Assembly: GCF_029232205.1 (NCBI RefSeq)
Contig: NZ_CP107255.1
Span: 210,001 to 242,000 of the forward strand
Length of the DNA stretch: 32,000 bases
Source: Candidatus Saccharimonadota bacterium
Lineage (GTDB): Archaea; Nanohalarchaeota; Nanosalinia; Nanosalinales; Nanosalinaceae
Direction of reading: 5' to 3'
In this document: positions 1 to 15,184 of the stretch, in pieces
How positions within the stretch are numbered: the stretch's first letter is position 1
How the letters are laid out: every line of letters begins with the position of its first letter
The notes under the pieces: model-generated
The model's input: only the letters and a program-made list of their open reading frames with translations
What the model was told of the DNA's origin: nothing
The model's database searches: none
Made by a program: the position numbers and the translations under genes

Positions 1-452
1 GACAGTCTGTAGGAGTCACAGGAACACCAGGATTCGTAATATACAAGACAGGTTCAAACTCTGGACAGCAGATTACCGGTGCACAGCCATTCAGCCGGTT
101 TGAATCAGTTATCAGCCAAGTTCAAAACTCTGATCCAGGAACCGAGACAACAGGAGAAAACGAACAGGTTGACAAGACCATACAAGTCTCAGGGACAGAG
201 TACAGTTTCTCACCTTCCACAATAAAAGTCGGAAAAGGCCAGACTGTGGAAATAGAATTTAGCAACACAGGCAGTATTCCCCACGACATGAAGATTCCAA
301 GCCTTGGAACAGGTTCAAAAGTTATACAGCCAGGTCAAACAGACTCCTTCACATTTACAGCACCAAAATCAGGAACCTTCCCTATAAGCTTCGAATGCAG
401 CCTCCCAGGTCACGCAGCGAACGGGATGAAAGGACAGCTAAAGACAGGTTGA
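1..452 (+). CDS. DsbA-like thioredoxin-fold domain fused to a C-terminal cupredoxin (type-1 Cu) domain; 5' end outside window
   Basis: Frame 3 is open from nt 3 to the stop at 450-452, so the track ORF 246..452 is only its tail. The visible N-part GVTGTPGFVIYKTGSNSGQQITGAQPFSRFESVI is paralogous to the C-terminus of ORF 10440..11243 (GISGTPGFLIFRTG..TGAQPYSSFESEI). The C-part has the cupredoxin ligand pattern His (IPHDM) ... C-x4-H-x4-M (FECSLPGHAANGM). Confidence 0.8.
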   Translation, partial: QSVGVTGTPGFVIYKTGSNSGQQITGAQPFSRFESVISQVQNSDPGTETTGENEQVDKTIQVSGTEYSFSPSTIKVGKGQTVEIEFSNTGSIPHDMKIPSLGTGSKVIQPGQTDSFTFTAPKSGTFPISFECSLPGHAANGMKGQLKTG

Positions 453-458: not shown

Positions 459-1046
459 GTGGGGGAATTTGAATGTGACAAGTGCGATAGAGGCTTCAGT
501 TCCGAGGAGGCGTTGGAGCAGCATAAACAGGACTACGATCACAGCAAGCTGAAGGAATGCTCGAAATGCGGTGAAAAATTCAGATCCAAGGAAAAATACA
601 GTGAGCACAAGAAAACGCATTGGGGTCCGGTACGAAGACACATCTTCGCTGACCATTATGTTTTAGGAGGACTAGCTCTGATAGGCCTTGTAATCGCGCT
701 GGGACTGGGCTTAAACGCACTTCCTTCTGGCGGCTCCAGTCAAGAATCCATACCTGAAGATGTAGGCCAGACTGTCAGTATAACCGGAGGAGATTTCTAC
801 TTCAATCCTTCCACGAGCCGGATAAACGATACAGGCAAGATAAGAGTGAGGTTTACCAATCAGGGAGGTGTTAGTCACAATCTCAGACTGACCGGTATCG
901 GGAAGGGGACAAGTGTCATCCCGCCAGGCCAATCTGAAGCATTCACCTTCAACGCTTCAAAAGACGGGGAAACACCTATAGCGTTTGAATGCACGCTACC
1001 AGGTCATGCCGAAAGAGGCATGGTAGGAAGATTCACTTCAACATAG
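459..1046 (+). CDS. Membrane-anchored cupredoxin with two N-terminal cytoplasmic C2H2 zinc fingers
   Basis: GTG start. Fingers are CDKCDRGFSSEEALEQHKQDYDH and CSKCGEKFRSKEKYSEHKKTH (C-x2-C-x12-H-x3/5-H). One TM helix (YVLGGLALIGLVIALGLGL). Cupredoxin domain has His (VSHNL) and FECTLPGHAERGM (C-x4-H-x4-M). Confidence 0.85.
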   Translation: MGEFECDKCDRGFSSEEALEQHKQDYDHSKLKECSKCGEKFRSKEKYSEHKKTHWGPVRRHIFADHYVLGGLALIGLVIALGLGLNALPSGGSSQESIPEDVGQTVSITGGDFYFNPSTSRINDTGKIRVRFTNQGGVSHNLRLTGIGKGTSVIPPGQSEAFTFNASKDGETPIAFECTLPGHAERGMVGRFTST

Positions 1047-1059
1047 AGGAGAACAAAAC

Positions 1060-1671
1060 ATGGAAGAATGCAAATACTGTGATAAAGAATTCGATAAAAA
1101 GAGGAGAAAGCTTCAGCACGAATTGAAAGAACACGAGGGAGAAATGTCTAGCCATGACAGAGATGGGAAAAAGAGAGAATTAAGCAAGTTGAGAGAGAAG
1201 GATAAGACGGCGAAACAGAAACGGAATAGGAAGATAATCTACAGCGGGATTGGTCTAGTATTGCTAGCTGGCCTGGTTTTCGGAGGCTACCAGGTTTCCC
1301 AATACGCTGATTCTCTACAGCCTGAGAAAGATGCCGATAAAGGAATAGGAACTCCTATTCACTGGCACGCAAATTACCAACTCACAGTCTGCGGAGAAAA
1401 CCAGATCCTCCGAGGAGGACCTACTAGAGCACATACACACGGTCAGAGCCAGTTCCATCTTGAAGGAGTGAGAACAAGCGAGGAACAGGCAACTTTAGAT
1501 GGGATTGTAGATAGTTTGGGCGGCCAACTGGAAAATAATTCAGTGATGGGTCAAACCAGCTGCAACGGAGAACCGGCTGAACTCACAGTTAAGGCGAATG
1601 GCCAGGAACTTGAAAATCCGCTGACTTACATCCCTAGGGATGGCGATAACATAGTAATCAGGTTAGAATGA
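1060..1671 (+). CDS. Membrane-anchored protein: N-terminal C2H2 zinc finger, one TM, extracytoplasmic His-rich domain of unknown function
   Basis: Finger CKYCDKEFDKKRRKLQHELKEH, a Lys/Arg-rich linker and a TM helix (IIYSGIGLVLLAGLVFGGY). The outer domain has HWH and HTH His clusters and two Cys. GAGGAG lies upstream of the ATG. The stop overlaps the next gene (ATGA). Confidence 0.8.
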   Translation: MEECKYCDKEFDKKRRKLQHELKEHEGEMSSHDRDGKKRELSKLREKDKTAKQKRNRKIIYSGIGLVLLAGLVFGGYQVSQYADSLQPEKDADKGIGTPIHWHANYQLTVCGENQILRGGPTRAHTHGQSQFHLEGVRTSEEQATLDGIVDSLGGQLENNSVMGQTSCNGEPAELTVKANGQELENPLTYIPRDGDNIVIRLE

Positions 1672-2531
1672 TAGAGAAACTTCTCAACTTCCTCTGGAAA
1701 TACATCGCAGGACCTATAATAGCAGATGCAAAAAACGCCGAAACCGCTGTATGGAACGGAGTGACCGCTCAAACTGGCTACAACCTTTTCAACACCGTAA
1801 CATGGGCGGTACTTGCAGCGTTCTTCGGCTACTTTATTTACAGGGAATTCGACCGGAGGGATATCAGTTTCACTCCGGAAACAGTTGTAGCCTCGGTACC
1901 TTTCATCCTGATTGGCGGGATGCTCCGATTTATCGAAGACGCCGGGGTTCTTGTATTCTTCCTCAGGCCTTTCCTGATAACCCCGATAATCTACTTCGTG
2001 ATAGCCGGAATATACTTGGCATCGTTTGTAGGAGCGATCAAGATCTCAGAAAAGTACGGCAAAAGCCGTGAAAGAGTTCTGGCCGAGATCGGAACACTGT
2101 TCCTGACGCCCGTAGCTTTCTACACTTTCTACCTGTTGTTCCAGTTCGGAATCAACTGGAGCCTACTCCTAATATCCTTGCTTATTCCAGGAGTGTTGAC
2201 CGCTGGATTTTACTGGCTTTTCAGAGATACGGGATTCGGGGAAGCTCCTTACTACCTTATTGCTTTCAGCCAGTTCTTCGGCGGAGCAGTAAGCATGGTA
2301 AGTGTTTCTCAAGGGTATGTGCAGAAACAGTTGCTGGCTCAGTTCTCCACCCAGCTATTCGGAGCACCAGGAATACTGGTAGTTAAGACCGGATTATTGG
2401 CTGCTGTCCTATACATAATGCAGGATATGGAAGACGATGAAATAACTGAAGCCATACTTGTACTTGCGTTAACAGTTGTCGGCCTGGCAACAGGGCTCAG
2501 AGTCCTCCTGAGATTAGTGGCAGGAATATGA
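1668..2531 (+). CDS. Polytopic integral membrane protein, unknown function
   Basis: 287 aa with about 7-8 hydrophobic helices. Translationally coupled to both neighbours by 4-nt overlaps. The internal ORF 1751..2071 is an alternate-frame artefact. Confidence 0.75.
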   Translation: MIEKLLNFLWKYIAGPIIADAKNAETAVWNGVTAQTGYNLFNTVTWAVLAAFFGYFIYREFDRRDISFTPETVVASVPFILIGGMLRFIEDAGVLVFFLRPFLITPIIYFVIAGIYLASFVGAIKISEKYGKSRERVLAEIGTLFLTPVAFYTFYLLFQFGINWSLLLISLLIPGVLTAGFYWLFRDTGFGEAPYYLIAFSQFFGGAVSMVSVSQGYVQKQLLAQFSTQLFGAPGILVVKTGLLAAVLYIMQDMEDDEITEAILVLALTVVGLATGLRVLLRLVAGI

Positions 2532-2713
2532 TCAAAGACAGACACCTCCATAAATTTTCGGACCTGAAGAACTACCAGTTCTACCTTGCCCTAGGTTCAA
2601 CTATAGCAGTTATAGTTCTGTTTTTCGATGACTGGAAGCCAGACATACATTCCGCCTTTGTAATAGGTTTCACCGCTTTGATGATCTGGAAAACCAGGAA
2701 ATCAAATTCCTAG
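2528..2713 (+). CDS. Small two-TM membrane protein
   Basis: 61 aa, ATGA overlap with the upstream gene, two hydrophobic segments. Followed by a hairpin plus T-run. Confidence 0.55.
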   Translation: MIKDRHLHKFSDLKNYQFYLALGSTIAVIVLFFDDWKPDIHSAFVIGFTALMIWKTRKSNS

Positions 2714-2726
2714 GAAAATCCAAGTT

Positions 2727-2750
2727 AAAAAACCTGAGTGGGGGTTTTTT
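2727..2750 (+). terminator. Hairpin plus T-tract terminator of the 459-2713 operon
   Basis: aaaaaacc (2727-2734) pairs with ggtttttt (2743-2750) and ends in a T6 run, immediately after the last gene of the operon. Confidence 0.5.
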
Positions 2751-2809
2751 GAAAAATATATAAGGTATTTTCTTGTCCGGTTCGGAGATACTAGTGCCGG
2801 TCCTGATGA

Positions 2810-2817
2810 TTTAAAAA
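2810..2817 (+). promoter_or_regulatory. TATA box for a leaderless arsR-merA transcript
   Basis: tttaaaaa is centred about 26-27 nt upstream of the ATG at 2840, the spacing expected for an archaeal leaderless mRNA. Confidence 0.45.
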
Positions 2818-2839
2818 TCCTAAATGAAAAGTTATTCAT

Positions 2840-3166
2840 ATGGATTATAATTCATATAGCAAATTTTTCAACGCATTAGCCAGCGAAAACAGACTGAAAA
2901 TACTCGACATACTCAGAGAACAGGACAGAACAGTATCCGAAATATCAGAAATAGCTGCCGTTGAACAAAGCTCGGTCTCACATCACCTTCGATGCCTCAG
3001 GAACTGCGGATTTGTCCAGAGAAAAGTTGACGGCAACAAAAGAATCTATACTATCAATTCAGAAGCGGTGGAAAAACTTTTCTCAGGCGTAGAAGAACAC
3101 ATCGAGAACCATGAAAACGGCATCTATACCTGTGAAATACTCAAAGACGAACGAGGAGAACAATGA
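2840..3166 (+). CDS. ArsR/SmtB-family metal-responsive transcription regulator (probable mer regulator)
   Basis: ENRLKILDILREQDRTVSEISEIAAVEQSSVSHHLRCLRNCGFV is a canonical ArsR wHTH. Cys residues include C-x3-C (CLRNC) and a C-terminal C. 4-nt overlap with merA. Confidence 0.9.
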   Translation: MDYNSYSKFFNALASENRLKILDILREQDRTVSEISEIAAVEQSSVSHHLRCLRNCGFVQRKVDGNKRIYTINSEAVEKLFSGVEEHIENHENGIYTCEILKDERGEQ

Positions 3167-4626
3167 TGACTGACTACGACCTAATCATAGTAGGTGGCGG
3201 TGCAGCAGCCTTTGCAGCCGCCAACAAAGCCAACCAACTCGAAAAACAAACTTTGATGATAAACGACCCCCACGATCTTCCTCTCGGGGGAACCTGCGTA
3301 AATGTCGGCTGCGTCCCCTCAAAGACGCTACTACATCAAGGAGAGGAAAACTACTACCCGAAAAACTCAGATTTCCGAGCTATCAACCTCGAAGGAAACG
3401 CAGACCTCGTAGAAGCAATCGAAGAAACCAACGAAATGGTTGACGGATTCAGGGAAGGAAACTACGAGAAAGTAATCGATAAACAAGACTATGTAGACCT
3501 TGTAGATGGCAGAGCCAAGTTCAAAGATGAGAATACAGTAGAAGTAAACGGCGAAAAATACTCCGCAGACCGATTCCTGATAGCCACAGGAGCATCCACA
3601 TTTGAACCACCGATCGATGGCATAGAAGAAGTGGATTATCTCACGAACGAATCAGTCCTAGAGCTTGACTACCAGCCCGAGAGAGTGGTTGTTATTGGTG
3701 GCGGACCGCTTGGACTCGAATGGAGCCAGATATTCCACCACTTCGACATAGAAGTAGTAGTTCTCGAAAGAAACGACAGATTCCTCCAAAGAGAAGACCC
3801 GCTAATCTCTGAGGAGATAGAGAAACATCTCAGCAACGAAGGAATAGAAATGCACTCCTCAGCAGAAACACAAAAAGTCCAAGAAGAAAACGGACAGAAA
3901 ATCATAGAAGCAGAGATAGATGGCGAAAAACAGGTCTTCAAAGCAGACGAAATCTTTTTAGCAACAGGCATCGACCCAAACACAGACGACCTGAACACGG
4001 AAGAAGCAGGAATAGAAACAGATGACAGAGGTTTCGTAGAGATAAACAATCGGATGGAGACCTCTCAGAACCATATCTATGCTGCAGGCGATGTAACAGG
4101 AGAACTTCCTCTGGAGACTGTAGCAGCCAAGCAAGGAAGTTTCGCAGCCCAGAATATGTTCGAAGACTCGACGGAATCAGAGGATTCCGCTCGATCGAGC
4201 GAACATGAAAGTTCGCCGAGTGCAGTGAAGGAGATTAATTACGATGAAATACCTCACGCCGTTTTTACATCTCCACAAGTTGCCTCAGTAGGTATGACCG
4301 AGCAGGAATATATGGAGGAGTATGATACCTGTCTATGTTCTGCTGTAAGGATGGACCAGGTGGAGAAGGCGGAGGCTATCAAAGACACCAGGGGAATTGC
4401 TCGGATGGTTATCGACCACGAAACAGAAGAAGTCCTCGGATTCCATATAGTAGGACCGATGTCAGCCGATATAATTACCACAGCAACCTACGCAGTCAAA
4501 AACCAGATGACTATAGACGAAATCAGAGACACAACCCATATCTTCCCAACTCTAAGCGAAGTCGTGAAAAAAGCAGCACAGAGCTTCGACGCCGACCTCG
4601 ACGAAATGGCCTGCTGCGTGGAGTGA
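3163..4626 (+). CDS. merA: Mercuric reductase (MerA core, no N-terminal HMA/NmerA domain)
   Basis: FAD-binding motif IIVGGGAAAFAAA, redox-active disulfide GGTCVNVGCVPSK, second Rossmann motif VVIGGGPLGLE. The C-terminal vicinal Cys pair (..EMACCVE) distinguishes MerA from other pyridine-nucleotide disulfide oxidoreductases. Confidence 0.85.
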   Translation: MMTDYDLIIVGGGAAAFAAANKANQLEKQTLMINDPHDLPLGGTCVNVGCVPSKTLLHQGEENYYPKNSDFRAINLEGNADLVEAIEETNEMVDGFREGNYEKVIDKQDYVDLVDGRAKFKDENTVEVNGEKYSADRFLIATGASTFEPPIDGIEEVDYLTNESVLELDYQPERVVVIGGGPLGLEWSQIFHHFDIEVVVLERNDRFLQREDPLISEEIEKHLSNEGIEMHSSAETQKVQEENGQKIIEAEIDGEKQVFKADEIFLATGIDPNTDDLNTEEAGIETDDRGFVEINNRMETSQNHIYAAGDVTGELPLETVAAKQGSFAAQNMFEDSTESEDSARSSEHESSPSAVKEINYDEIPHAVFTSPQVASVGMTEQEYMEEYDTCLCSAVRMDQVEKAEAIKDTRGIARMVIDHETEEVLGFHIVGPMSADIITTATYAVKNQMTIDEIRDTTHIFPTLSEVVKKAAQSFDADLDEMACCVE

Positions 4627-4630
4627 TAGT

Positions 4631-5758
4631 ATGACAGAGCACAAATGCGAGAAATGCGGTAAGACATTCGACTCAGAAAAAGCACTCGAACAACACCAAG
4701 AAGATTATGACCACAGCAAAGAGAAAGAAGACGATAAAGGTCTGAAGGAAAGGATAATGACCTCGAACTACACAGGCTTAGCAATAATAGGCATACTCCT
4801 CGTAGGTCTTACAGTAGGAGGATACTACGCCCTGAGTCCTTCAAACACATCTGCTGGTGATGGATACAGTCATTCACATACTGCTGAGATAGGCAGCCAA
4901 GCACCTGATTCTTCGTTCACTACAGTCAACGGCGAAGAATTCAAGCTCTCCAAATACAGCGGAGAGAAAAGAATGATATGGCTTTACGCAACCTGGTGTC
5001 CAAGCTGTTACAAAGGAGCACAAGTCCTCCAAGCCCGAAACGAACAACTCAAGGATATGAAGATAATCGCCTTGAAAACGAAAGGAAACGCAGGATACTC
5101 AGGACCATCAACACAGCAGTTCGCCGATAAATACGCACCAGAAACCCTGAACAAAGAGAACTGGGTCTGGGGAAAGGCTTCACAGGAACTAACCAACATC
5201 TATAACCCTCAGAACACTCCTGATATAATCTGGCTGGTAAAACCTAACGGAGAGATTTACGCCAAGACAGCAGCACCAGCAGCACGAATCAACCAGATAA
5301 CAAGGTTCGCCCAGAAAAACTTCAACAACACAGAAGAAATCAGCCTCGGAAAAGAAGTAGAAATAATGGGCAGAAACCACATTTCAACAGGCGAACAGGT
5401 CAACAACTACAACTCCAATCCTCCAACATCAGGACCTCACTACCAGAGACCAGCAGAAACAGGGTTCTACAGCAAGAAACTGCCTGACGAAAGACTTGTC
5501 CACAACATCGAACACGGACAAATCTGGATAAGCTACAACAACATCACTTCAGAAACCAGGAAACAGTTAGAACAACTGGCACAGAACTATCCTAAAGCCG
5601 TTATAGTGACAAAGCGTCCAGAGAACAACGCCAAGATAGCGGTAGCCTCCTGGGGAAGACTGATGGAGCTTAACAGCTACGACAAGCAAAAAGTCGTGAA
5701 ATACATCAAGGCCTACATCAACAAATCTCCAGAACCATTTGCCAAACTACCCAACTAA
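4631..5758 (+). CDS. Membrane-anchored protein: N-terminal C2H2 zinc finger, one TM, thioredoxin-like (CxxC) domain plus DUF3105-like domain
   Basis: Finger CEKCGKTFDSEKALEQHQEDYDH, TM helix (GLAIIGILLVGLTVGGYYAL), TlpA/ResA-like WLYATWCPSCYKG. The DUF3105-like segment is YNSNPPTSGPHY...LVHNIEHGQIWISY. Confidence 0.85.
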   Translation: MTEHKCEKCGKTFDSEKALEQHQEDYDHSKEKEDDKGLKERIMTSNYTGLAIIGILLVGLTVGGYYALSPSNTSAGDGYSHSHTAEIGSQAPDSSFTTVNGEEFKLSKYSGEKRMIWLYATWCPSCYKGAQVLQARNEQLKDMKIIALKTKGNAGYSGPSTQQFADKYAPETLNKENWVWGKASQELTNIYNPQNTPDIIWLVKPNGEIYAKTAAPAARINQITRFAQKNFNNTEEISLGKEVEIMGRNHISTGEQVNNYNSNPPTSGPHYQRPAETGFYSKKLPDERLVHNIEHGQIWISYNNITSETRKQLEQLAQNYPKAVIVTKRPENNAKIAVASWGRLMELNSYDKQKVVKYIKAYINKSPEPFAKLPN

Positions 5759-5773
5759 CGAGGCCAAGAAAGA

Positions 5774-6286
5774 ATGAATCGGATAAAAGAAGGATTTTCG
5801 GATTTCAGCAGGTCGGTAAAGACGGTTCTTACGGAGAGAAAGTATCAGGGCATCTTTCTCGGTGTTTTCACCCTATTCTTTACTCTCTACATTTTCACGC
5901 TTCCCGCCACCTACACAGGAGGAATAGTTGGATGGATTTCGCTCCAGTATTTGACGCCTGAGTTAGCCGTGTTTTCATTTGTGATGTCTGTTGAGACCGG
6001 TCTTATAGCATCTTTCATAGCCTACTCCTCCACACTTTCACTTGGAACAGAGCTTGAAACTTCATCAGGTATAGCAGGGAGTATACTGCCTCCATTACTT
6101 TGCTGTTCTCCACTACTACCCGCACTGGGAGCGGTCGTGGCAAGCCTGACACCTCTAGCGATTAATATAGGATATCTTCAGGGCTTGATCGCAGTTTATG
6201 AGACAGAAATTCTTCTTGGAGCAACACTGATACTTGGCTACTCCGTACTGGAAAACTCGAAAACAGTGAGAAAATGTATTAATTAA
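5774..6286 (+). CDS. Four-TM membrane protein with an intramembrane vicinal Cys pair (candidate Hg(II)/thiophilic-metal transporter)
   Basis: 170 aa, hydrophobic. PPLLCCSPLLPALG is a CC-x-P motif inside a predicted helix. It is the last gene of the arsR-merA operon. The function is inferred only. Confidence 0.6.
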   Translation: MNRIKEGFSDFSRSVKTVLTERKYQGIFLGVFTLFFTLYIFTLPATYTGGIVGWISLQYLTPELAVFSFVMSVETGLIASFIAYSSTLSLGTELETSSGIAGSILPPLLCCSPLLPALGAVVASLTPLAINIGYLQGLIAVYETEILLGATLILGYSVLENSKTVRKCIN

Positions 6287-6494: not shown

Positions 6495-8813
6495 TTATTC
6501 GGCCTCGATTCGTGAAAGTCTCATTGCGTTGCCTGTTACGCCTACTGTCATTCCTGCATCTCCTATGAGAACTGCTATTGCAACTGTAACAATCTGTAGT
6601 GGAACTCCAATTGCGAGGAGAAGTTTGACGAGTAGGCTTGAGTAGATGTTCTGTCGTATCACGCCGTTTGCGGTATGGGAGAGTTTGTAGAGGTACGGTA
6701 TTTTCGAGAGGTCATCGCCCATGAGTGCGACATCTGCTGTCTCCAGTGCGGTGTCTGTTCCTGCCGCGCCCATTGCGACTCCTACAGTTGCTGTTGCGAG
6801 TGCGGGTGCATCGTTCACGCCATCGCCAACCATCGCAACGCCGTCATACTTTTCCACCAGTGACTGTATCTTCTCCACTTTTTGTTCGGGTAGAAGCTCT
6901 GCGTGGTACTCTCCGACACCTACTTGCTCAGCGATCGCTTTTCCTGTTCTCTCGTTGTCGCCTGTAAGCATCATGGTTTTGATGCCCTGTTCGTGAAGTC
7001 TTTCGATTGTTTCTGCTGCTTCTTCCCGTACTTTGTCGGCAACCGCTATTAATCCTTCTACACGATCTTCGTTTCCTACTACGATAACGGTTTTGCCCTG
7101 GCTCTGGAGTTCAGGTACTTTTTCATCGAGTAGATCCATGCAGTCGTTTCTTTCGCATAGCTCTCGGCTTTTGGAGCTGATTTCTCCAGAGGTCATGGCT
7201 GTGTGCACATGTTTGAGGTTGAATCCTTTTTCGCTGAAAAGATCGGGTTTACCGGCGTAGTGTTCTTTTCCAGCTAGTTTTGCTTTTACTCCTTTGCCTG
7301 TGATGCTTTCGAAATTCTGGATGTTCTCTGGTTCAATACCTCTGGACTGTGCTGCCTTGATGATGGCGTCTCCAAGAGGGTGTTCGCTCCGAGTTTCGAG
7401 TCCTCGGGCGCATTTCAGGACATCTTCTTCGTTCTTGCCGTTTACTGGTACTATATCGGTGACGGCAAGCTCTCCTTTTGTGAGGGTGCCTGTTTTGTCG
7501 AAGGCGATTGCCTCGATTTCTCCTGTGGCTTCTAGGTGTTTTCCACCTTTGATCAGCACACCGTTTTTCGCTGCGCTTGTGATACCGGATACGACTGTTA
7601 CAGGTGTCGATATTACGAAGGCGCATGGACATGCTAGCACGAGCATCGTGATACCGGCTAGGAACCATGTTGTCCACGACATACCGAGGAGTAGGGGCGG
7701 TACAGTAGCTGTTAAAACTGCGAGCGTTACCATGAATGGTGTGTAGTATTCGGAGAACCGTTCCACGAACTGTTCTCTCTTGGTCTGGCTTGACTCCGCA
7801 TCCTCAACCATCTGAACGATCTTCGATAATGTGTTGTCTGACGAGTCCTTAGTCACTTCTATCTCAAGGTATCCTTCCTCGTTGATCGTCCCTGCGTAGA
7901 CTTCGTCGCCTTGTTTCTTGTCCACTGGCATCGATTCTCCGGTGATCGGTGCCTGGTTGACAGCGCTTTCGCCGTCGATAACTTCTCCGTCCATTGGGAT
8001 TTTCTCGCCAGGTCTAGTTATGACGATGTCTCCGATTTTTACCTGTTCAACGGGTATCTCTGTTTCTTCTCCATCTCTCTTCACTGTGGCGGTGTCGGGT
8101 GAGAGATTCATCAGTTCGCGGAGCGAGTTCCGAGCCTTATCCATAGAGTAAGTCTCCAGTAACTCGGCTACATTGAACAGGAACACCAGGGTTGCGGCCT
8201 CGAAGTAGAGTTCGGCTCCGAACGCAAAGCTGGCTGAAACGGCGCTGAGGATTGCCGTGCTCATCAAGAAATCTATGTCTAGGTTCAGTTTTTTCGCCGA
8301 ATAATAACCGTTACGCAATATTACAGGGCTTCCTGAAGCGATCCCGGCCAGGAAAAGTATCTCGGCGATGAAGAACTCTCTGCCCAGAAATTGGGCTATC
8401 TGGAAGTCCTGTAACACCCCGAACTTGAATAAGAGGCCTGCGCCAAGGAAGATCCCTGCTATCCATGTCTTGATAGCTCTACTGCTTTTCCAGACGCTTT
8501 TTCTACCTTCTTCTTCTATGTCTCCGCCGTTACTTTGGTTATGTCCTGCTCCTTCATTATCTTTATTCTTCACACTGTAGCCTACGCTTTCTATAGCATC
8601 AATTAGTTCAAATTCGGAAATCTTTGAAGAATTGTAGTTAACTGTGACTTTTCCAACGGTTGTTAAAGCGCTATATTCGTTTATACCCTCAATATTGTCA
8701 AGTGAATTTTCTATCTTGGCGGCACAAGATGCACAGTCCATCTCAGGAACCATGAACTCGGCCTCATCTTCTTTCAAGTCCTCATCATGACTTTTGTCGT
8801 GTTCGTCACTCAT
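6495..8813 (-). CDS. Heavy-metal P1B-2-type ATPase (Zn/Cd/Pb-type)
   Basis: N-terminal HMA domain (MDCASCAAKIE), TGES, CPC motif (ACPCAFVISTP), [19 protein letters not shown]7 N-x7-K (NIYSSLLVK) and TM8 D-x-G (GDAG) match the P1B-2 signature. Confidence 0.93.
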   Translation of the reverse strand: MSDEHDKSHDEDLKEDEAEFMVPEMDCASCAAKIENSLDNIEGINEYSALTTVGKVTVNYNSSKISEFELIDAIESVGYSVKNKDNEGAGHNQSNGGDIEEEGRKSVWKSSRAIKTWIAGIFLGAGLLFKFGVLQDFQIAQFLGREFFIAEILFLAGIASGSPVILRNGYYSAKKLNLDIDFLMSTAILSAVSASFAFGAELYFEAATLVFLFNVAELLETYSMDKARNSLRELMNLSPDTATVKRDGEETEIPVEQVKIGDIVITRPGEKIPMDGEVIDGESAVNQAPITGESMPVDKKQGDEVYAGTINEEGYLEIEVTKDSSDNTLSKIVQMVEDAESSQTKREQFVERFSEYYTPFMVTLAVLTATVPPLLLGMSWTTWFLAGITMLVLACPCAFVISTPVTVVSGITSAAKNGVLIKGGKHLEATGEIEAIAFDKTGTLTKGELAVTDIVPVNGKNEEDVLKCARGLETRSEHPLGDAIIKAAQSRGIEPENIQNFESITGKGVKAKLAGKEHYAGKPDLFSEKGFNLKHVHTAMTSGEISSKSRELCERNDCMDLLDEKVPELQSQGKTVIVVGNEDRVEGLIAVADKVREEAAETIERLHEQGIKTMMLTGDNERTGKAIAEQVGVGEYHAELLPEQKVEKIQSLVEKYDGVAMVGDGVNDAPALATATVGVAMGAAGTDTALETADVALMGDDLSKIPYLYKLSHTANGVIRQNIYSSLLVKLLLAIGVPLQIVTVAIAVLIGDAGMTVGVTGNAMRLSRIEAE

Positions 8814-9108
8814 TTGCGTGATCTACACCTGACTCGATTATCTCTTCGATGTGTTTGTCGTTCATACTGTAGTATCGGTGCTTCCCGTCCTTCCTCTTTT
8901 CCACGATTCTCCTGTCATTCAGTTTTCTCAAGTGATGGGAGATGTTGGAGTTGGTCATCTCCAACTGTTCCGTCAACTCGTGGACACATTTTTCTCCTTC
9001 CGAAAGACTGAGCAGTATTTTCAGCCTGTTCTCGCTGGATAGTGCCTGAAATATTTCTGCGGTTTCTTCAAGACCTTCCCGATACATAACATTTGAACAT
9101 TTATTCAA
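8806..9108 (-). CDS. ArsR/SmtB-family regulator (CadC/CzrA-like) of the ATPase
   Basis: ENRLKILLSLSEGEKCVHELTEQLEMTNSNISHHLRKL. 8-nt overlap with the ATPase start. The true start may be the ATG at 9087 (MYREG..), about 26 nt downstream of the TATA-like tttttaaatat. Confidence 0.88.
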   Translation of the reverse strand: MNKCSNVMYREGLEETAEIFQALSSENRLKILLSLSEGEKCVHELTEQLEMTNSNISHHLRKLNDRRIVEKRKDGKHRYYSMNDKHIEEIIESGVDHANE

Positions 9109-9153
9109 ATATTTAAAAAATTAATTTTGCGAAATAAAACCCGAGTCAGGCAG

Positions 9154-9309
9154 TTACTCGACCAATAAAGCAATAATGATAATCAGGGCTGTAATTCCAA
9201 ACAGTATTGCAGTCATTATTGCCATCTCTTTCCATGAAAGTTCGGCGAGAGCGTGATTAAGGTCGTCTCCGCCGTGGAAAACCGAAGGAATCTGGAAAAC
9301 AAGGCTCAT
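9154..9309 (-). CDS. Possible 51-aa single-TM peptide (below the ORF-track cutoff)
   Basis: Hand translation gives MSLVFQIPSVFHGGDDLNHALAELSWKEMAIMTAILFGITALIIIIALLVE* with an ATG start and a hydrophobic C-terminal helix. It fills an otherwise empty gap between two regulators. No homology evidence. Confidence 0.3.
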   Translation of the reverse strand: MSLVFQIPSVFHGGDDLNHALAELSWKEMAIMTAILFGITALIIIIALLVE

Positions 9310-9338
9310 AATTTAGTCTTTGATTTCCCGGTTTTATT

Positions 9339-9746
9339 TCATTCTGAGGCCGCACAGTGCTTACAGCAGTATATTTTCCCGTTTTCTTCGTGGCCGCCGC
9401 TGTAGATCTCACAACCACAGTTCTCACATTCTTCTATCTCGCCCTGGATTGCGGCGTTAAGAATTTCTCCGAATGCATCCAGCTGTTCCCTCACCAAGTC
9501 TTCTCCATCTTCTGTCAACTGGTAGACCTTCTTGCCCCGATCTCCTTTCTCTTCCATCGTAGCGACTCCCTTCTCCGTTAGTTTTTCCAGAAAAGGGTAG
9601 ATGTGGGAGGTTGTCGGTTTCTTGCCCGTAATTCTTTCTATGTCTTTGATTAGCTGATAGCCGTGTTTTTCTCCTGATTCGAGTAGTAAGACTGTGTAGA
9701 GCCGGTTTACATTTGATAAATCGATTTCTTCCATTTTCGAGTTCAC
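9339..9746 (-). CDS. PadR-family transcription regulator with C-terminal Cys-rich (TRASH-like) metal-binding tail
   Basis: PadR wHTH: YTVLLLESGEKHGYQLIKDIERITGKKPTTSHIYPFLEKLTEKG...KVYQLTEDG. C-terminal tail: CENCGCEIYSGGHEENGKIYCCKHCA. Confidence 0.85.
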   Translation of the reverse strand: MNSKMEEIDLSNVNRLYTVLLLESGEKHGYQLIKDIERITGKKPTTSHIYPFLEKLTEKGVATMEEKGDRGKKVYQLTEDGEDLVREQLDAFGEILNAAIQGEIEECENCGCEIYSGGHEENGKIYCCKHCAASE

Positions 9747-9767
9747 ATTTAGATAATCTCAACACAA

Positions 9768-9775
9768 TTTTATAT
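9768..9775. promoter_or_regulatory. Shared, centrally placed TATA element of the divergent PadR / DUF305 genes
   Basis: ttttatat sits 25.5 nt from the PadR ATG (9746) and 27.5 nt from the DUF305 ATG (9799) in a 52-bp intergenic region. It is embedded in the near-palindrome atatcattatat. Confidence 0.4.
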
Positions 9776-9798
9776 CATTATATGACATACCTGTTGCT

Positions 9799-10404
9799 AT
9801 GGATCAGAAAAACTCAAATCTTAGGAATAAAATTCTCTCTTGGATATCGGCTAATAGAACAAAAATTCTGATCGCGTTCGGAATACTAGTTTTTCTCGGA
9901 TTATTTGTCGCCAACAATACCTATGATGACAACAAATCTGTAAGCTCATCTGAATTCAACCGAGCCGATGTTATGTTCATGAACATGATGATCATCCACC
10001 ATGATCAGGCTATCGAAATGGCGGAGCTAGCACCTAATAGAACAGATAACGAGAATATTCTCGAACTTTCAAGAAATATTTCCAAGGCTCAGAGAGCAGA
10101 GAATGAACAGATGGCGGAATGGCTGAGAGAACTCGGCTACCAGAGGCCTAGAAACGGGCATCGAATGGCTGGAATGGCATCACAGGAACAGATGCAGAGA
10201 CTGGAAAACAGTAGCGGTAGAGAGTTTGACCGATTGTTCTCAGAATTAATGATTACACATCATAGAGGCGGTATCCAGATGGCGCAGAGCTTTATTCAGA
10301 GAGGCAGGAACCCTGAACTTATAGAAATGGAGAAAGGAATGGTTAGGGCTCAGACGGAGGAGATTGAGAAGATGAAGGAGTGGAGAAGTAACTGGACTGA
10401 GTAA
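9799..10404 (+). CDS. DUF305-family (ferritin-like four-helix) protein, membrane-anchored or secreted
   Basis: N-terminal TM or signal helix. Duplicated motif FMNMMIIHHDQAIEMA / FSELMITHHRGGIQMA is typical of DUF305, a family often found in copper-resistance loci. Confidence 0.85.
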   Translation: MDQKNSNLRNKILSWISANRTKILIAFGILVFLGLFVANNTYDDNKSVSSSEFNRADVMFMNMMIIHHDQAIEMAELAPNRTDNENILELSRNISKAQRAENEQMAEWLRELGYQRPRNGHRMAGMASQEQMQRLENSSGREFDRLFSELMITHHRGGIQMAQSFIQRGRNPELIEMEKGMVRAQTEEIEKMKEWRSNWTE

Positions 10405-10439
10405 ACCTTAAAAACAACATATCAACATGTGATATGTAA

Positions 10440-11243
10440 GTGTTTGATATGAACGATAAAATTTCATTCGATCTCTCGATAAAAAATGCGGTAGCAGTAA
10501 GCTTCATAGCCGGAATCCTTCTAGGAATAGTTGTCGGAGGTGCAGGAGCATTAACTCTTCAAAAAAGCCCACAGACAATGGAATCCACTTCTACAGATAA
10601 TCCTTCGCCCAGCCCAACAACAGGCGACACACAGCAGGACAGCAAGGATGGAGGAAACACTGTCTCTGTTGCCGACTTGACATGGGAGGATGATCCGGTA
10701 TTAGGTAGCGAGGATGCAGAAGTTACCCTTGTATGGTTCAGCGACCTGAACTGTATGTACTGTCGGCGTTTCGCCCAGAACACATTCCCACAGATCAGAG
10801 AAAACTATGTAAGCCAGGGAGATGTCCGAGTAGTGAAAAAAGATTTCATCACGATGGGAGAAAACTCTGTAACACTGGCAAAAGCCTCGCAAGCCGCATG
10901 GCAGCTAGTCGGAGAAGACAATCCAGAAGTATTCTGGACCTGGTCGGACACGATCTCAGAAAACCAGCCTGAGAGAAAGAGAAACTCCAAGAATGTAACA
11001 GAAGACATAATCTCTACAACTCAAGAAGTTGATGGGATTGACGCAGAACAGCTTCGTGAGAAGATGAAAGAGATTAGTGAAGAAGAAATAAACCAGGACA
11101 TTCAGGAAGGTAAACAGAGAGGGATTTCCGGTACACCAGGATTCCTGATCTTCAGGACAGGATCTGATGAAGCCAAGCAGATGACAGGCGCACAACCCTA
11201 CAGCAGCTTCGAATCCGAGATCAACAAACTCCTAGAGAACTAG
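10440..11243 (+). CDS. Membrane-anchored DsbA-like thiol:disulfide oxidoreductase
   Basis: N-terminal TM helix, CxxC active site (LNCMYCRRF), C-terminal GISGTPGFLIF. The ATG at 10449 is a more likely start than the GTG at 10440. Confidence 0.85.
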   Translation: MFDMNDKISFDLSIKNAVAVSFIAGILLGIVVGGAGALTLQKSPQTMESTSTDNPSPSPTTGDTQQDSKDGGNTVSVADLTWEDDPVLGSEDAEVTLVWFSDLNCMYCRRFAQNTFPQIRENYVSQGDVRVVKKDFITMGENSVTLAKASQAAWQLVGEDNPEVFWTWSDTISENQPERKRNSKNVTEDIISTTQEVDGIDAEQLREKMKEISEEEINQDIQEGKQRGISGTPGFLIFRTGSDEAKQMTGAQPYSSFESEINKLLEN

Positions 11244-11333
11244 CCTCTAGGAGACACCTATTTTTTATTTTTACACTCACCTATCACATACTGATATAAA
11301 GACTTGTGATGAATAACCAAATGTGATCTCAAA

Positions 11334-11609
11334 ATGAAACTCAAAAACAAAATTTCCATAATGCTTGTATCGCTGATTACAACCCTTTCCACAGCTGCAG
11401 CAACTCCAGGCCACGACGAAGGAACGGCCACAGGAATGATGTGGAGCGACGGAGGAAGTTGGATGCACAGTGGAGCAGGCATGATGGGGTATAACATGTG
11501 GGGTATGGGATGGTTCGGACTACTATTCGGACTCGCATTCTGGATACTAGTCATCCTTGGAATAATCTACCTATACCAACAAATCACTGAAAACGAAGGT
11601 GAAGAATAA
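11334..11609 (+). CDS. Small Met/His-rich exported, membrane-anchored protein (putative Cu(I)-binding)
   Basis: Signal-like N-terminus, segment GMMWSDGGSWMHSGAGMMGYNMWGMGW with 8 Met and 1 His, C-terminal TM helix, acidic tail. Confidence 0.65.
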   Translation: MKLKNKISIMLVSLITTLSTAAATPGHDEGTATGMMWSDGGSWMHSGAGMMGYNMWGMGWFGLLFGLAFWILVILGIIYLYQQITENEGEE

Positions 11610-11610
11610 A

Positions 11611-12003
11611 ATGAGCGAATACGGAATAACCGCCGAAGTTGAATACAGCTACTCTGAAGCCATAGAAAAGACGAAAGAAGTTCTCGCAGACCATGGCTTC
11701 GGAGTCCTATCAGAGATAGAAGTATCCGAAAAACTCAGGGAAAAGCTGGATGTAGATTTCGACGACTACATGATACTCGGAGCATGTAACCCGGAAAAAG
11801 CTTATCAAGGCTTAAAGGAAGAGCAGGAACTCGGACTTTTACTGCCCTGTAATGTAATAGTGTACCGAGAAAACGGTAAAACTTTTGTATCGGCGATAAA
11901 GGCTTCAAAAGCACTTGAAGTAGCCGGAAATGAAGATCTGGAGCCGATAGCCGAAGAAGTTGAAAAAGACCTAAAGAAAGTCATAAATGAGGTAAAACAA
12001 TAA
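11611..12003 (+). CDS. DUF302-domain protein
   Basis: HGFGVLSEIEVSEKL...DYMILGACNPEKAY...LLPCNVIVYRENG matches the DUF302 pattern. The ATG at 11611, just after the upstream stop, is preferred over the track's GTG at 11599. Confidence 0.8.
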   Translation: MSEYGITAEVEYSYSEAIEKTKEVLADHGFGVLSEIEVSEKLREKLDVDFDDYMILGACNPEKAYQGLKEEQELGLLLPCNVIVYRENGKTFVSAIKASKALEVAGNEDLEPIAEEVEKDLKKVINEVKQ

Positions 12004-12275
12004 TGGTAAGAAGCAAGAACCAGGCAGGTATAGCTCTAGGAGCACTTTTCGGACTGATGCACACTCTATGGGTTGCAGCAGTAGGAACAGGAATAGGTCA
12101 ACCTATAGTAGACGCTCTTGAATCAGGGCACTTCCTATCCTCAAACTACTCCGTTACTGCTTTTGACCCTGTAACGGCTTTAACAGGAATAATAGGGGCA
12201 GTTATAGCAGGTTATATTATTGGCTGGATATTTATCTACGTCTACAACTTTACAGATAACAAACTAGACAGCTAG
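12003..12275 (+). CDS. Small membrane protein (2-3 TM), unknown function
   Basis: 90 aa, hydrophobic. The start overlaps the DUF302 stop (TAATG), so it sits in the operon upstream of copB. Confidence 0.6.
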
Positions 12276-12297
12276 CTTAAGGAGGTTTCTCAACAAA

Positions 12298-14304
12298 ATG
12301 GAACACGACCACGACGACGAAGACTCAGACCATGACTCAGGTCACGGACACAAACATCACGAAGAAATGTTCAAAAGAAAATTCTTCATCTCAACACTGC
12401 TATCAATACCGGTACTGTACTTCTCCACTTTTGTCTCAGGTCTACTTGGATATACTCCTCCGACATTTACCGGCAGTAACTTAATTGTGCCTGTCTTTTC
12501 AATCATAATTTTCGCATATGGAGGGCTGCCGTTCCTGAAGATGGCAAAGTCGGAGTTTGAAGACCGTCAACCAGGAATGATGATGCTGATCTCACTCGCC
12601 ATAACTGTCGCCTTTGTCTACAGTATGGCAGCTCTCGTCTTACCTACAGAATCAAGCTTCTTCTGGGAGCTCGTAACCTTGATCGACATCATGCTGCTCG
12701 GCCACTGGATAGAAATGCGTAGTGTTCGCCAGGCATCAGGAGCACTAGACGAACTAGCACAGCTCATGCCAGACACTACAGAAAGAATAAACGAGGACGG
12801 AACAGTCGAGGAAGTCAAGGTCTCCGAACTAGAAGAAGGCGACAAAGTTCTTGTCAGACCTGGGGCATCAATTCCAGCTGACGGAGTTGTAGTCGAAGGA
12901 GAATCAGATGTCAACGAGTCCATGATCACAGGAGAATCCAAACCTGTCAGCAAAGAGCCAGGGGACGAAGTGATCGGCGGCACAGTAAACAAGGAAGGAA
13001 GCCTGAGAGTAGAAATCACTGCTACAGGAGACGAAACCGCACTATCCGGCATCATGAAAATGGTTGAAGAAGCACAGGAATCAAAGTCGAAGACGCAGCT
13101 TCTCGCTGATAAGGCGGCCGGATGGCTTTTCTATATAGCACTGGGTTCAGGAGCCATTACTGCAGTAGCTTGGATGATAGCTGTAGGGTTTAACGTAACT
13201 GTAATTGAGAGAGTTGTAACTGTACTGGTTATTGCCTGCCCTCACGCCCTCGGTCTGGCGATACCTCTAGTAGTAGCGATTAACACTTCGATGGCTGCAA
13301 AGAACGGAATTTTAGTTAGAGACCGTATCGCTATGGAGGAATCTCGAAAGCTTGATACAATCATGTTCGACAAGACCGGAACCCTGACAAAGGGAGAGAT
13401 GGGCGTTGTAGAGATCGAGACAGACGGAATAGAAGAAGACGAAGCACTTACACTGCTCGCATCAGTAGAATCAGACTCCGAACACATAATCGCTGAAGCA
13501 ATCAGAAACTCAGCAGAAGAAAGAAACCTCAGCATCCATGACGCTGATAACTTCGAAGCAATCAAAGGAAAAGGTGTCAAAGCCGATGTAAAAGGAGAAA
13601 CTCTCTATGTCGGAGGCCCTAACCTAGCAAAGTCAGAAGGGTTCAAGATCTCCGACAAACTGAACCAGTTTGCTGAAGACGCAGCAGAAAACGCAGAAAC
13701 AGCAATCTACCTGTTTAGAGACGGAGAAGCAGTAGCAGCAGTAGGACTAGCAGATGTAATCAGAGAAGAAAGCCGTGAAGCCATCGAAAAACTCCACGAC
13801 AGAGGTATCGAAGTAGCGATGCTGACAGGAGACTCAGAAGAAGTAGCAGAAGCAGTCGCCAAAGAACTCAACATCGACACCTACTTCGCAGAAGTCCTGC
13901 CCGAAGACAAAGACAAGAAAGTCCAAGAACTACAAGACCAAGACAAAAAAGTAGCTATGGTCGGTGACGGCGTCAACGACGCACCGGCACTCACAAGAGC
14001 CGATGTAGGTATCGCAATCGGTAGCGGAACAGATGTAGCAGTCGAATCAGCGGATATTATACTCGTGCAGAACAATCCACTGGATGTTGTCAAACTGTTG
14101 AATCTCAGCGATCTAAGCTACAGCAAGATGAAACAGAACCTGTTCTGGGCCACAGGATACAACGCCTTCGCAATACCACTAGCAGCTGGAGTCGCAGCAC
14201 CAATAGGAATAATCCTATCACCAGCAGTAGGAGCAGTAGTGATGTCACTTTCCACAGTAATAGTAGCCATCAACGCACAACTGATGAAAAGAAAAGCAGT
14301 CTAA
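12298..14304 (+). CDS. copB: Copper P1B-3-type ATPase (CopB-like) with His-rich N-terminus
   Basis: N-terminal [30 protein letters not shown] motif ([11 protein letters not shown]), [19 protein letters not shown]7 GYN, TM8 MSLST. GGAGGT lies upstream. Confidence 0.92.
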
Positions 14305-14551: not shown

Positions 14552-14675
14552 TCCTCTATATGCCAACGGGCGTACACGAAGCAAACCAACCCCTAAATAA
14601 CCAGTTCATATCCACAAAAACCAGTGTTTGTAACCAATATCTGCAAATCTCCTATGCGTAGGTGTTTGACCCCTA

Positions 14676-15053: not shown

Positions 15054-15101
15054 TAAGAAGCTAACCCGTAAGCAATAGACGGGTAGAAAACAAATCTGGA
15101 T

Positions 15102-15149: not shown

Positions 15150-15184
15150 CTTTATAACCCGATATACCGCCCTTTTCAGCTACC

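Follow-up and report, generated by a model that had tools for sequence, protein, structure and literature searches.

What does a C2H2 zinc finger do at the N-terminus of an exported archaeal protein? C2H2 fingers are almost exclusively eukaryotic (PMC3541406), and the question is raised by three genes (genes 1, 2 and 3) in a 32-kb stretch of DNA, referred to here as the window, from Candidatus Nanohalovita haloferacivicina, a nanohaloarchaeon of the DPANN group whose genome measures about 1.05 Mb. The gene 2 and gene 3 proteins are 100% identical to proteins of this organism. A first-pass annotation, read from the sequence of the window alone, had described all three gene products as an N-terminal finger, a single transmembrane (TM) helix and an outward-facing metal or redox domain, and had proposed that they are membrane-tethered sensors that bind nucleic acid, with a metal-sensing switch or a docking tag as alternatives. 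The architecture is borne out by hydrophobic segments and Pfam matches, with a reservation for the gene 2 head, and the alternatives fit the evidence better than the sensor.

Three proteins with N-terminal finger motifs

The features of the three genes are listed below (aa, amino acids; ORF, open reading frame; AF2, AlphaFold2).

459..1046, + strand: gene 1, 195 aa; two C2H2 fingers, TM anchor, type-1 cupredoxin (ORF, Pfam)
474..542, + strand: gene 1 finger 1, residues 6-28, CDKCDRGFSSEEALEQHKQDYDH (motif scan)
558..620, + strand: gene 1 finger 2, residues 34-54, CSKCGEKFRSKEKYSEHKKTH (motif scan)
657..713, + strand: gene 1 signal-anchor/TM helix, residues 67-85 (Kyte-Doolittle 2.33; AF2 helix 66-87)
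762..1040, + strand: gene 1 cupredoxin domain, residues 102-194, His140/Cys178/His183/Met188 (Pfam Copper-bind, Cupredoxin_1)
1060..1671, + strand: gene 2, 203 aa; CCHH motif, conserved basic helix, TM anchor, His/Cys-rich beta-grasp-like domain (ORF)
1069..1134, + strand: gene 2 CX2CX12HX4H motif, residues 4-25 (motif scan)
1135-1233, + strand: gene 2 basic linker, residues 26-58 (N-terminal region net +7)
1234..1290, + strand: gene 2 TM helix, residues 59-77 (Kyte-Doolittle 1.91; 8 Lys/Arg in the preceding 15 residues)
4631..5758, + strand: gene 3, 375 aa; one C2H2 finger, TM anchor, TlpA/ResA-like CxxC thioredoxin, DUF3105 (ORF, Pfam)
4646..4714, + strand: gene 3 finger, residues 6-28, CEKCGKTFDSEKALEQHQEDYDH (motif scan)
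4778..4834, + strand: gene 3 TM helix, residues 50-68 (Kyte-Doolittle 2.08)
4889..5275, + strand: gene 3 thioredoxin-fold domain, WCPSC (Pfam, NCBIfam)
5378..5737, + strand: gene 3 DUF3105, residues 250-369 (PF11303, 107.2 bits)

The ligand pattern is present in all three ORFs as the first-pass annotation had stated. A six-frame scan of the window found CX2CX12HX3-5H exactly four times, every time in the N-terminal part of genes 1-3, against a chance expectation of 0.06 (mean of 100 shuffles; maximum 1). The motif starts at residue 4-6 of each protein; in gene 1 the second finger starts at residue 34. Each protein opens with a classical C2H2 finger with the exception of gene 2, which has a C2H2-like motif only. 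In genes 1 and 3 the ligand pattern CX2-4CX12HX3-5H is accompanied by the Phe/Leu core (F13, L19); in gene 2 the ligands are present and the core Leu is displaced by one residue.

The gene 1 head scored above the Pfam gathering thresholds for both zf-C2H2_4 (29.6 bits; threshold 27) and zf-C2H2 (28.1 bits; threshold 25.2). The AF2 model of this protein (overall predicted local distance difference test score, pLDDT, 70.7) contains two beta-beta-alpha units at pLDDT of about 70-80, the first with strands at 4-5 and 12-13 and a helix at 16-25, the second with strands at 32-33 and 40-41 and a helix at 44-53. As a unit the two fingers align without gaps to the tandem fingers of PRDM9, ZNF568 and Zif268, with a 28-residue period and 31.7 bits per pair. 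The outer part matches Copper-bind at 26.6 bits (cutoff 21.2), is a beta-sandwich in the AF2 model and is weakly similar to the copper-resistance protein CopI. His140, Cys178, His183 and Met188 are invariant across the gene 1 family and constitute a type-1 blue copper ligand set, as first proposed. Orthologues with 42-93% identity retain the full architecture. The orthologue with 93% identity, P0106, is filed as a bacterial metagenome-assembled genome (MAG; Ca. Halalkalibacterium sp., 2.4-kb contig); for P0106, and for P0023 of locus L018 described below, either archaeal contigs have been mis-binned or there has been genuine cross-domain transfer.

The outer part of gene 3 was likewise described correctly, as a CxxC thioredoxin plus DUF3105: Pfam matches are to AhpC-TSA (36.2 bits), Redoxin (31.6 bits) and DUF3105, NCBIfam matches are ResA-/TlpA-like, and the active-site sequence is WCPSC. 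The finger scored 20.8 bits against zf-C2H2 within the complete protein; the head by itself reached 25.4 bits (cutoff 25.2). It is homologous to finger 1 of gene 1, a relationship that would give it the same beta-beta-alpha fold, and finger 2 is cleanly absent from gene 3 in our alignment of the heads (alignment A1). The gene 1 and gene 3 finger peptides had been called nearly identical; they share 19 of 32 residues (59%), which does not warrant that description, but the DNA has indeed diverged (57% identity) and the selection on the head that was deduced from it is real. Of the 19 identical residues, 15 are encoded by different codons, which marks the two heads as old paralogues that have remained under purifying selection; the same figures exclude a recent gene conversion. 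Only the heads can be called paralogous, however; the outer domains of the three genes are unrelated, and the gene 2 head is of a distinct type. Homologues of about 326 aa without a finger (P0032-P0039) have the order TM, DUF3105, redoxin, and in P0032-P0036 a vicinal CC lies inside the N-terminal TM helix ('AGICCALPLL') and resembles the CC motif of the 170-aa protein encoded next to gene 3 (see below).

For gene 2 there are 20 full-length homologues, and Pfam scans assigned its protein to no family. C4, C7, H20 and H25 are invariant in 20/20 homologues. The motif scored 13.6-16.4 bits against zf-C2H2_4, below the threshold of 27, and the N-terminus is a plain helix in the AF2 model, with a pLDDT of 43 for residues 1-10. 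Profile searches and modelling thus uphold the finger assignment in gene 1 and, when the head is scanned by itself, the profile in gene 3, but not in gene 2, where the match is sub-threshold and the model a helix. All 20 homologues have Lys or Arg at helix position 2, the basic tail (+7) is conserved, and conservation of the linker within the family is 57%. The outer domain, modelled at pLDDT >90 as beta-grasp-like, has H101, H103, C111, H125, H127, H133 and C168 as invariant residues; comparison of the model with folds in the PDB gave weak matches to the transcobalamin beta domain and to 3u7z (E ~1e-2).

Each protein has one hydrophobic segment, at the positions listed above, and the anchors are Gly/Ala-rich (Kyte-Doolittle about 1.4-2.3). 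The 15 residues before this segment contain 3, 8 and 3 Lys/Arg in genes 1, 2 and 3, respectively, and those following it 0, 1 and 0, which agrees with the positive charge before the helix remarked on earlier; the net charge of the N-terminal region is 0, +7 and -4. A single hydrophobic segment, a positive-inside bias and an outer domain of a type normally found outside the cytoplasm (cupredoxin, TlpA/ResA-like thioredoxin, DsbA) are the features of a type II signal anchor, and from the charge pattern and the nature of the outer domains an N-in topology is predicted. The data support the view that the products of genes 1-3 are bitopic envelope proteins, N-in/C-out, which belong to two adjacent metal-resistance operons and have what would be a cytoplasmic zinc-binding head of no known role.

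Comparison with homologues in other genomes strengthens the prediction that the head stays inside. A twin-arginine motif, [ST]RRxLL, followed by a Gly/Ala-rich hydrophobic region, is found about 40 residues past the last finger in 24 of 25 haloarchaeal homologues, and in none of the 45 nanohaloarchaeal proteins, genes 1-3 included; Pfam TAT_signal gives a weak match in the Haloarcula marismortui homologue. In every case the head comes before the export signal, a Sec-type anchor in the nanohaloarchaea and a twin-arginine signal in the haloarchaea. The export route is thus specific to the lineage, with the fingers always on the cis side of the signal, and of the arguments from sequence this is the strongest for their staying in the cytoplasm. 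Two other routes were considered for the window genes and rejected: the twin-arginine (Tat) route, because there is no RR motif in genes 1-3, and a lipoprotein route, suggested by an AliA/AliB-type gene beside gene 2, because there is no Cys or lipobox after any of the anchors.

The head is also under constraint. Identity within the gene 1 family is 0.74 and 0.65 for the fingers as against 0.57 for the cupredoxin, and within the gene 3 family 0.71 for the finger as against 0.68 for the thioredoxin and 0.69 for DUF3105; the corresponding values for gene 2 are 0.60 (head) and 0.67 (outer domain). Linkers and TM segments drift (0.29-0.44). By this measure the heads are conserved to the level of the outer domains, and selection on the module, first surmised from genes 1 and 3, extends to the families. 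In alignment A1, heads carried on different outer domains all have S15, A18, Q21, Y26, D27 and S29, and nearly all have K8, D25 and K30. Invariance of surface residues that are not ligands, irrespective of the outer domain, points to a specific macromolecular partner common to these proteins.

Operon context and distribution of the head

The three genes belong to two tight operons, with one 126-nt gap between them. Operon one consists of a DsbA-cupredoxin gene, gene 1, gene 2, a DUF63/AliA-AliB gene and a 61-aa ORF (gaps of 6, 13, -4 and -4 nt) and is of a copper/thiol-oxidation type. Operon two consists of ArsR, MerA, gene 3 and a 170-aa membrane protein (gaps of -4, 4 and 15 nt) and is a mercury-resistance operon. 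The genes that accompany genes 1-3 are:

1..452, + strand: DsbA-cupredoxin fusion, 3' part, cut by the window start; first gene of operon one, no finger (read from sequence)
1668..2531, + strand: DUF63/AliA-AliB-family membrane protein, 4-nt overlap with the gene 2 stop (PF01889, 129 bits)
2840..3166, + strand: ArsR-family regulator that opens the mer operon after a 126-nt gap (HTH_5, 63.5 bits)
3163..4626, + strand: MerA mercuric reductase, core only (TIGR02053, 506.9 bits; cutoff 454.45)
5774..6286, + strand: polytopic membrane protein, 170 aa; vicinal Cys pair (LPPLLCCSPLLP), C-terminal Cys (sequence)

The reductase is a true MerA, with the redox CxxxxC (active site CVNVGC) and the C-terminal Cys pair (CCVE), and its gene overlaps that of ArsR by 4 nt. 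It begins at the FAD motif, and the NmerA domain is absent from it, as it is from all complete MerA copies examined. Homologues of the 170-aa protein were located directly 3' to gene 3 homologues in loci L009 (11445-11990), L010 (11192-11704), L011 (11451-11963), L012 and L018 (3139-3636). These proteins of about 170 aa share the motifs FTLPATYTGG... and LPPLLCCSP(L/I)LP and a C-terminal Cys, and match no Pfam or NCBIfam family; they are candidates for an archaeal Hg(II) transporter. No match to the Pfam or NCBIfam models for MerP, MerT, MerC, MerF or MerE was obtained with gene 3, with the 170-aa protein or with the remaining Cys-bearing membrane proteins. Between ArsR/MerA and the gene 3 homologue, several loci encode small membrane proteins whose TM segments contain vicinal or CxxC cysteines ('AVCCLAIELLGG', 'CASCS', 'CPAC') and which have no family match (L011:9539-9769 and 9762-10004; L009:9536-9775 and 9759-10004; L010:9263-9484 and 9612-10004; L017:4772-5218 and 5759-6199). 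Haloarchaeal clusters additionally encode 'VCC' membrane proteins of 76-81 aa.

In operon one, the complete form of the DsbA-cupredoxin gene (366 aa) is found at L008:297-1397. The AliA-AliB-family gene accompanies the gene 1-gene 2 pair in L007 and L013 too. DUF63 corresponds to AliA/AliB, the archaeal lipoprotein lipidation enzymes, and aliA is often found beside 'predicted metal binding proteins' (PMC12462473); gene 2 may be that neighbour.

When related loci were collected, the two operons were found to recur separately. The set [ArsR or CsoR]/MerA/[finger-TM-thioredoxin/DUF3105]/[~170-aa CC protein] is present in a second nanohaloarchaeon (L010), together with MerB on haloarchaeal replicons (L009, Halobacterium zhouii; L011; L012; L016, Halorussus vallis), and in a MAG labelled Bipolaricaulia (L018, gene 3-type protein P0023). 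In L017, a Lys-rich contig that is apparently non-halophilic, a close MerA and a gene 3-type protein are accompanied by Cys-rich membrane proteins of other kinds. Genes 1 and 2 form a conserved operon of DoxX, DsbA-cupredoxin, gene 1, gene 2, MauE/DoxX and AliA-AliB family, which in two other nanohaloarchaea stands in a copper-type context (DUF305/CopM, DUF411, YHS permease, PadR, P-type ATPase) with no MerA.

The nanohaloarchaeal type of head was found on cupredoxin, on thioredoxin plus DUF3105, on thioredoxin alone, on DUF3105 alone and on DsbA. A related haloarchaeal type has two or four fingers; a tblastn search of 72,556 plasmids with this head returned 14 records, of which 12 lie under coding sequences (CDSs) annotated as DUF3105, thioredoxin-domain or DsbA-family proteins and two have no listed feature. 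Haloarcula marismortui plasmid pHMA155 (NZ_CP039134.1), for example, encodes finger-finger-TRRQLLL-DsbA (L015:7001-7987) followed by DsbB. There the RefSeq 'DsbA family protein' CDS starts at 7178, and the ORF is open from an ATG at 7001; the segment upstream of 7178 encodes the two C2H2 fingers and TRRQLLL, so that the annotation clips the head. Since pipelines can do this, the architecture may be under-counted. The databases label proteins of this kind only 'C2H2-type zinc finger protein', 'DUF3105 domain-containing' or 'hypothetical'. Bacterial DUF3105 homologues have solely a Lys/Arg-rich tail ahead of the TM segment. The very narrow pattern QHx[QED]DYDHS, run over species genomes, returned 5 loci. 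An exhaustive HMMER search with the head+TM alignment returned long, eukaryote-like poly-finger proteins with 6-59 matched stretches as all 150 of the 150 top matches, and two scans of metagenomes gave no usable match. In every homologue that was recovered, then, the head is a portable module of one, two or four fingers whose partner is an exported thiol-oxidoreductase or a copper- or mercury-handling domain.

A second kind of head with all-Cys ligands was also found. A free 57-aa DUF7128-like protein, CX2CX12CX3C, is encoded between ArsR and MerA at L010:6836-7009, and a similar all-Cys head is N-terminal on a TM protein at L017:1561-2643, the outer part of which resembles L010:8412-9266. Such a 'Rosetta stone' pair of free and fused forms hints that heads of this kind could act in trans. 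The position of the free head in L010, in the ArsR-MerA interval, is that of MerH in Sulfolobus.

Beyond the two operons, positions 6495-14304 of the window form a second block of metal genes, and 14600-23600 is a run of minus-strand ORFs without family matches that abuts tRNA-Gly(TCC) at 23469-23541:

6495-8813, - strand: CPC-type P-type ATPase with HMA domain
8806-9108, - strand: ArsR of the second metal block
9339-9746, - strand: PadR with a Cys-rich C-terminus
9799-10404: CopM/DUF305 protein
10440-11243: anchored DsbA without a finger
11334-11609: 91-aa Met/His/Trp-rich protein
11599-12003: DUF302
12298-14304: ATPase with a His-rich N-terminus
17081-20260: DnaG-Zn-ribbon/Toprim/MCM fusion, 1059 aa, within the 14600-23600 region in addition to the ORFs without family matches

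L006, a metagenome contig with an identical gene 3, diverges past the first ATPase, where it has extra HMA proteins, a second ATPase and DsbD_TM/CcdA instead of PadR/CopM. As L006 differs here from the window and from L007, the metal island is variable between strains. The 14600-23600 region looks like an integrated plasmid or provirus; neither an attachment-site repeat nor an integrase was found in it, and the genome paper for Ca. Nanohalovita haloferacivicina reports no genomic islands in this genome.

Possible roles of the head

The residues that occupy the contact positions of the finger helix vary little in the nanohaloarchaeal heads. Position -1 is Ser15 of alignment A1, invariant in 22 aligned heads, and positions 3 and 6 are Ala and Gln in 25/25 nanohaloarchaeal first fingers; haloarchaeal fingers have Gly, Thr, Ala or Asp at these positions. 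Because the contact residues are the same whatever the outer domain, one shared partner fits better than diverse DNA targets. The reading we prefer, tentatively, is that the head is a Zn-structured cytoplasmic docking head that is possibly also sensitive to thiophilic metals. In this proposal the head would remain cytoplasmic and fold around Zn(II), and a single shared partner would be bound by the conserved surface of its helix (Ser at -1, Ala at 3 and Gln at 6, followed by Asp-Tyr-Asp-His-Ser-Lys). The partner would most likely be a protein of the same resistance machinery, at its cytoplasmic face, and could be the NmerA-less MerA, one of the Cys-bearing membrane proteins or another head. 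Through docking, the exported redox or metal domain would be tied to the cytoplasmic side. Since the site has two thiolates, Hg(II), Cu(I), Cd(II) or oxidants may be expected to disrupt it, and docking would then be sensitive to stress.

Several observations weigh against this proposal. The gene 2 head, as modelled, lacks support for a finger fold; finger 2 of gene 1 is basic, and so are helix position 2 and the tail of gene 2. Proteins of halophiles are generally acidic, which weakens any argument drawn from charge. The gene 1 and gene 3 operons occur apart in other genomes though they share the head type, so that a partner specific to either operon cannot explain both. Anchored neighbours without a head exist, namely the DsbA at 10440-11243 and the DsbA-cupredoxin fusion. 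Finally, the outer domains were surveyed starting from homologues of genes 1-3, and the survey is biased accordingly.

A second reading, which we consider unlikely but which would make good sense of the mer operon, is that the head is an acceptor or relay for thiophilic metals: its CxxC would take Hg(II) or Cu(I) from the Cys-pair membrane proteins and hand it to MerA, or it would sense a soft metal by displacement of Zn. The role would be the counterpart of the cytoplasmic Cys pair of MerT or of NmerA. Gene 3 lies in a conserved ArsR-MerA operon directly ahead of the LPPLLCCSP membrane protein, haloarchaeal clusters add their 'VCC' proteins, and complete MerA copies all lack the NmerA domain; archaeal mer operons are in addition without known transporters, usually merA alone with no merP/merT-type genes (PMC3466566). 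The all-Cys head of the same spacing, free in L010 and TM-fused in L017, the CC pair within the TM anchor of the finger-less P0032-P0036, and a number of heads that varies (1, 2 or 4), as does that of HMA domains in P-type ATPases, would also be accommodated. However, the invariant His pair and the hydrophobic core suggest a stable structural Zn site rather than one for labile transfer, and the invariant non-ligand surface would be superfluous if metal binding were all that was needed. Moreover, the same head is found on single-pass cupredoxin and DsbA proteins in MerA-less operons with no evident metal conduit, and the Cys-bearing membrane proteins belong to no Mer transporter family.

It is doubtful, and rather less probable again, that the head is simply a topogenic element, a finger that folds co-translationally, fixes the N-terminus inside and aids a weak anchor, with no later function; in haloarchaea it might be part of an extended Tat signal peptide that is cleaved. 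There is experimental precedent in yeast, where C2H2 fingers fold in the ribosome exit tunnel, block translocation and allow a segment downstream to integrate at a lower hydrophobicity threshold (PMC8379923, PMC2139883), and folded N-domains reportedly hinder translocation of the N-terminus (PMC8379923, citing Denzer 1995; PMC2139883). The N-terminal regions of genes 1 and 3 are poorly positive, the anchors are Gly/Ala-rich and of modest hydrophobicity, and the export signal directly follows the head in every case. A plug, on the other hand, requires only ligands and core, yet surface residues are invariant and the head is as well conserved as the outer domains. There are finger-less anchored neighbours with short acidic N-terminal tails, and the Lys-rich homologues P0049, P0071 and P0073 from non-halophiles keep the finger despite ample positive charge. 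Tat signal peptides insert N-in by themselves, yet it is the Tat-type haloarchaeal homologues that bear 2-4 fingers. The thiol or metal nature of every recovered outer domain would be left unexplained as well.

The sensor of the first-pass annotation is in our view improbable, ranking below the topogenic element. As a signalling device, the head would be a membrane-tethered one-component regulator that binds DNA or RNA or sequesters a (basal) transcription factor, and that relays outside Cu, Hg or thiol status to expression, possibly after proteolytic release or signal-peptide cleavage. The fingers are classical and in tandem and align best to eukaryotic DNA-binding fingers; finger 2 of gene 1 is basic (mean +3.1) and gene 2 has its Lys/Arg at position 2 and its basic tail; weak matches to the double-stranded RNA-binding zf-C2H2_jaz class fit the H-x5-H spacing; a divergent TFIIB-type gene lies two genes upstream of the H. 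marismortui homologue; and the only characterised archaeal-virus C2H2 protein binds DNA (PMC3541406). Apart from finger 2 of gene 1 and position 2 of gene 2, however, the basic or polar contacts at -1, 2, 3 and 6 and the net basic surface of DNA-binding C2H2 fingers are not what was found: the mean net charge of most finger classes is -1 to -4 and the invariant contact positions are non-basic. Most nanohaloarchaeal gene 3-type proteins have a single finger, and the recognition surface is the same on different outer domains, so that all would share one target. ArsR, PadR or CsoR regulators are encoded in each operon and already head it, and cupredoxin and DsbA are not typical sensor domains. 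The head is probably not a sequence-specific DNA-binding domain, and a metal-sensing switch or docking tag is the better fit to the evidence. If it were nevertheless true, the regulator reading would provide an archaeal counterpart of ToxR-type regulators or anti-sigma factors made from a eukaryote-type finger.

The idea that the fingers are a chance motif or the product of a wrong start codon, untranslated or non-functional, has next to no probability: gene 1 does start with GTG, and the RefSeq start of the H. marismortui homologue does fall downstream of its fingers, but four motifs stand against the 0.06 expected, dozens of homologues from different phyla all keep the ligands where adjacent residues vary, amino acids are kept despite synonymous divergence, an in-frame TGA two codons upstream of the GTG bars an earlier start of gene 1, and the H. 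marismortui ORF is open from the ATG at the fingers.

Significance and comparison with known systems

C2H2 fingers are held to be modules of eukaryotic transcription factors; here they are conserved portable heads in two archaeal phyla, and as such point to a non-transcriptional, possibly older use of the fold. The conserved cluster ArsR-MerA-[finger-thioredoxin-DUF3105]-[CC membrane protein] provides concrete candidates for the missing archaeal Hg transport and hand-off. Homologues are located on plasmids of cultivable haloarchaea (Haloarcula marismortui, Halobacterium zhouii, Halorussus) and are amenable to genetics. A full-text literature search found no publication in which C2H2 heads are joined to an exported DsbA, thioredoxin, DUF3105 or cupredoxin domain, in agreement with the earlier impression that the architecture had no prior characterisation, and nothing functional on DUF3105; the genome paper for Ca. 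Nanohalovita haloferacivicina is silent on the mer cluster and the fingers.

Among systems with a similar layout are the zinc-binding anti-sigma (ZAS) factors RsrA, RslA and ChrR, which have an N-terminal cytoplasmic Zn-thiolate domain, often one TM segment, and an extracytoplasmic domain, and whose Zn-Cys site can respond to thiol or oxidant stress. The overall logic of a cytoplasmic Zn head, TM segment and outer domain is the same, but the ZAS head is an HX3CX2C helical domain of another fold that binds a sigma factor. No HX3CX2C motif was present in the sequences and no zf-HC2 match was obtained in the Pfam scans; archaea have no sigma factors. Regulators of the ToxR/CadC type are type II bitopic proteins with a basic winged-helix domain in the cytoplasm and a dedicated sensor domain in the periplasm. 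They share with genes 1-3 the type II layout, with a fold of nucleic-acid-binding type at the N-terminus inside and a domain outside. In contrast, the fingers described here are mostly acidic, they are joined to catalytic or metal-binding outer domains, and regulators are encoded separately.

In terms of fold, the heads resemble the classical eukaryotic tandem C2H2 fingers (Zif268, PRDM9, ZNF568; PF00096/PF13894) in spacing, Phe/Leu core, 28-residue period and predicted beta-beta-alpha structure. They differ in being archaeal, in having one to four fingers that are mostly acidic with non-basic contacts, and in their fusion to an export signal and an extracytoplasmic domain. AFV1p06 of an archaeal virus (PMC3541406) is another example of the classical C2H2 fold in the archaeal world, but it is a small soluble DNA-binding protein without a membrane anchor or a metal-resistance context. 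The haloarchaeal C(P)XCG micro-proteins and CdpC (PMC11241148; bioRxiv 10.64898/2026.07.16.738847) are likewise Zn modules of halophiles with non-transcriptional roles, and the zinc ribbons of CdpC serve membrane association and FtsZ1 binding (bioRxiv 10.64898/2026.07.16.738847). Rather than C2H2 heads of exported proteins, these are zinc ribbons of the C4 or C3H kind, in proteins that are soluble or bound through an amphipathic helix; CdpC was considered as a precedent for a zinc-finger membrane anchor and set aside, both fold and membrane attachment being different.

With respect to metal handling, the closest parallel is the bacterial relay from MerP through MerT, MerC or MerF to NmerA and MerA (PMC3466566, PMC8261052). 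Gene 3 resembles it in belonging to an ArsR-MerA operon, in its outer CxxC, in the vicinal-Cys membrane protein encoded next to it and in its cytoplasmic CxxC. Unlike the bacterial Hg(II) relay, however, the archaeal proteins match no MerP, T, C, F or E model, their inner site is a Cys2His2 finger rather than an HMA domain, and the head is also found outside mer operons.

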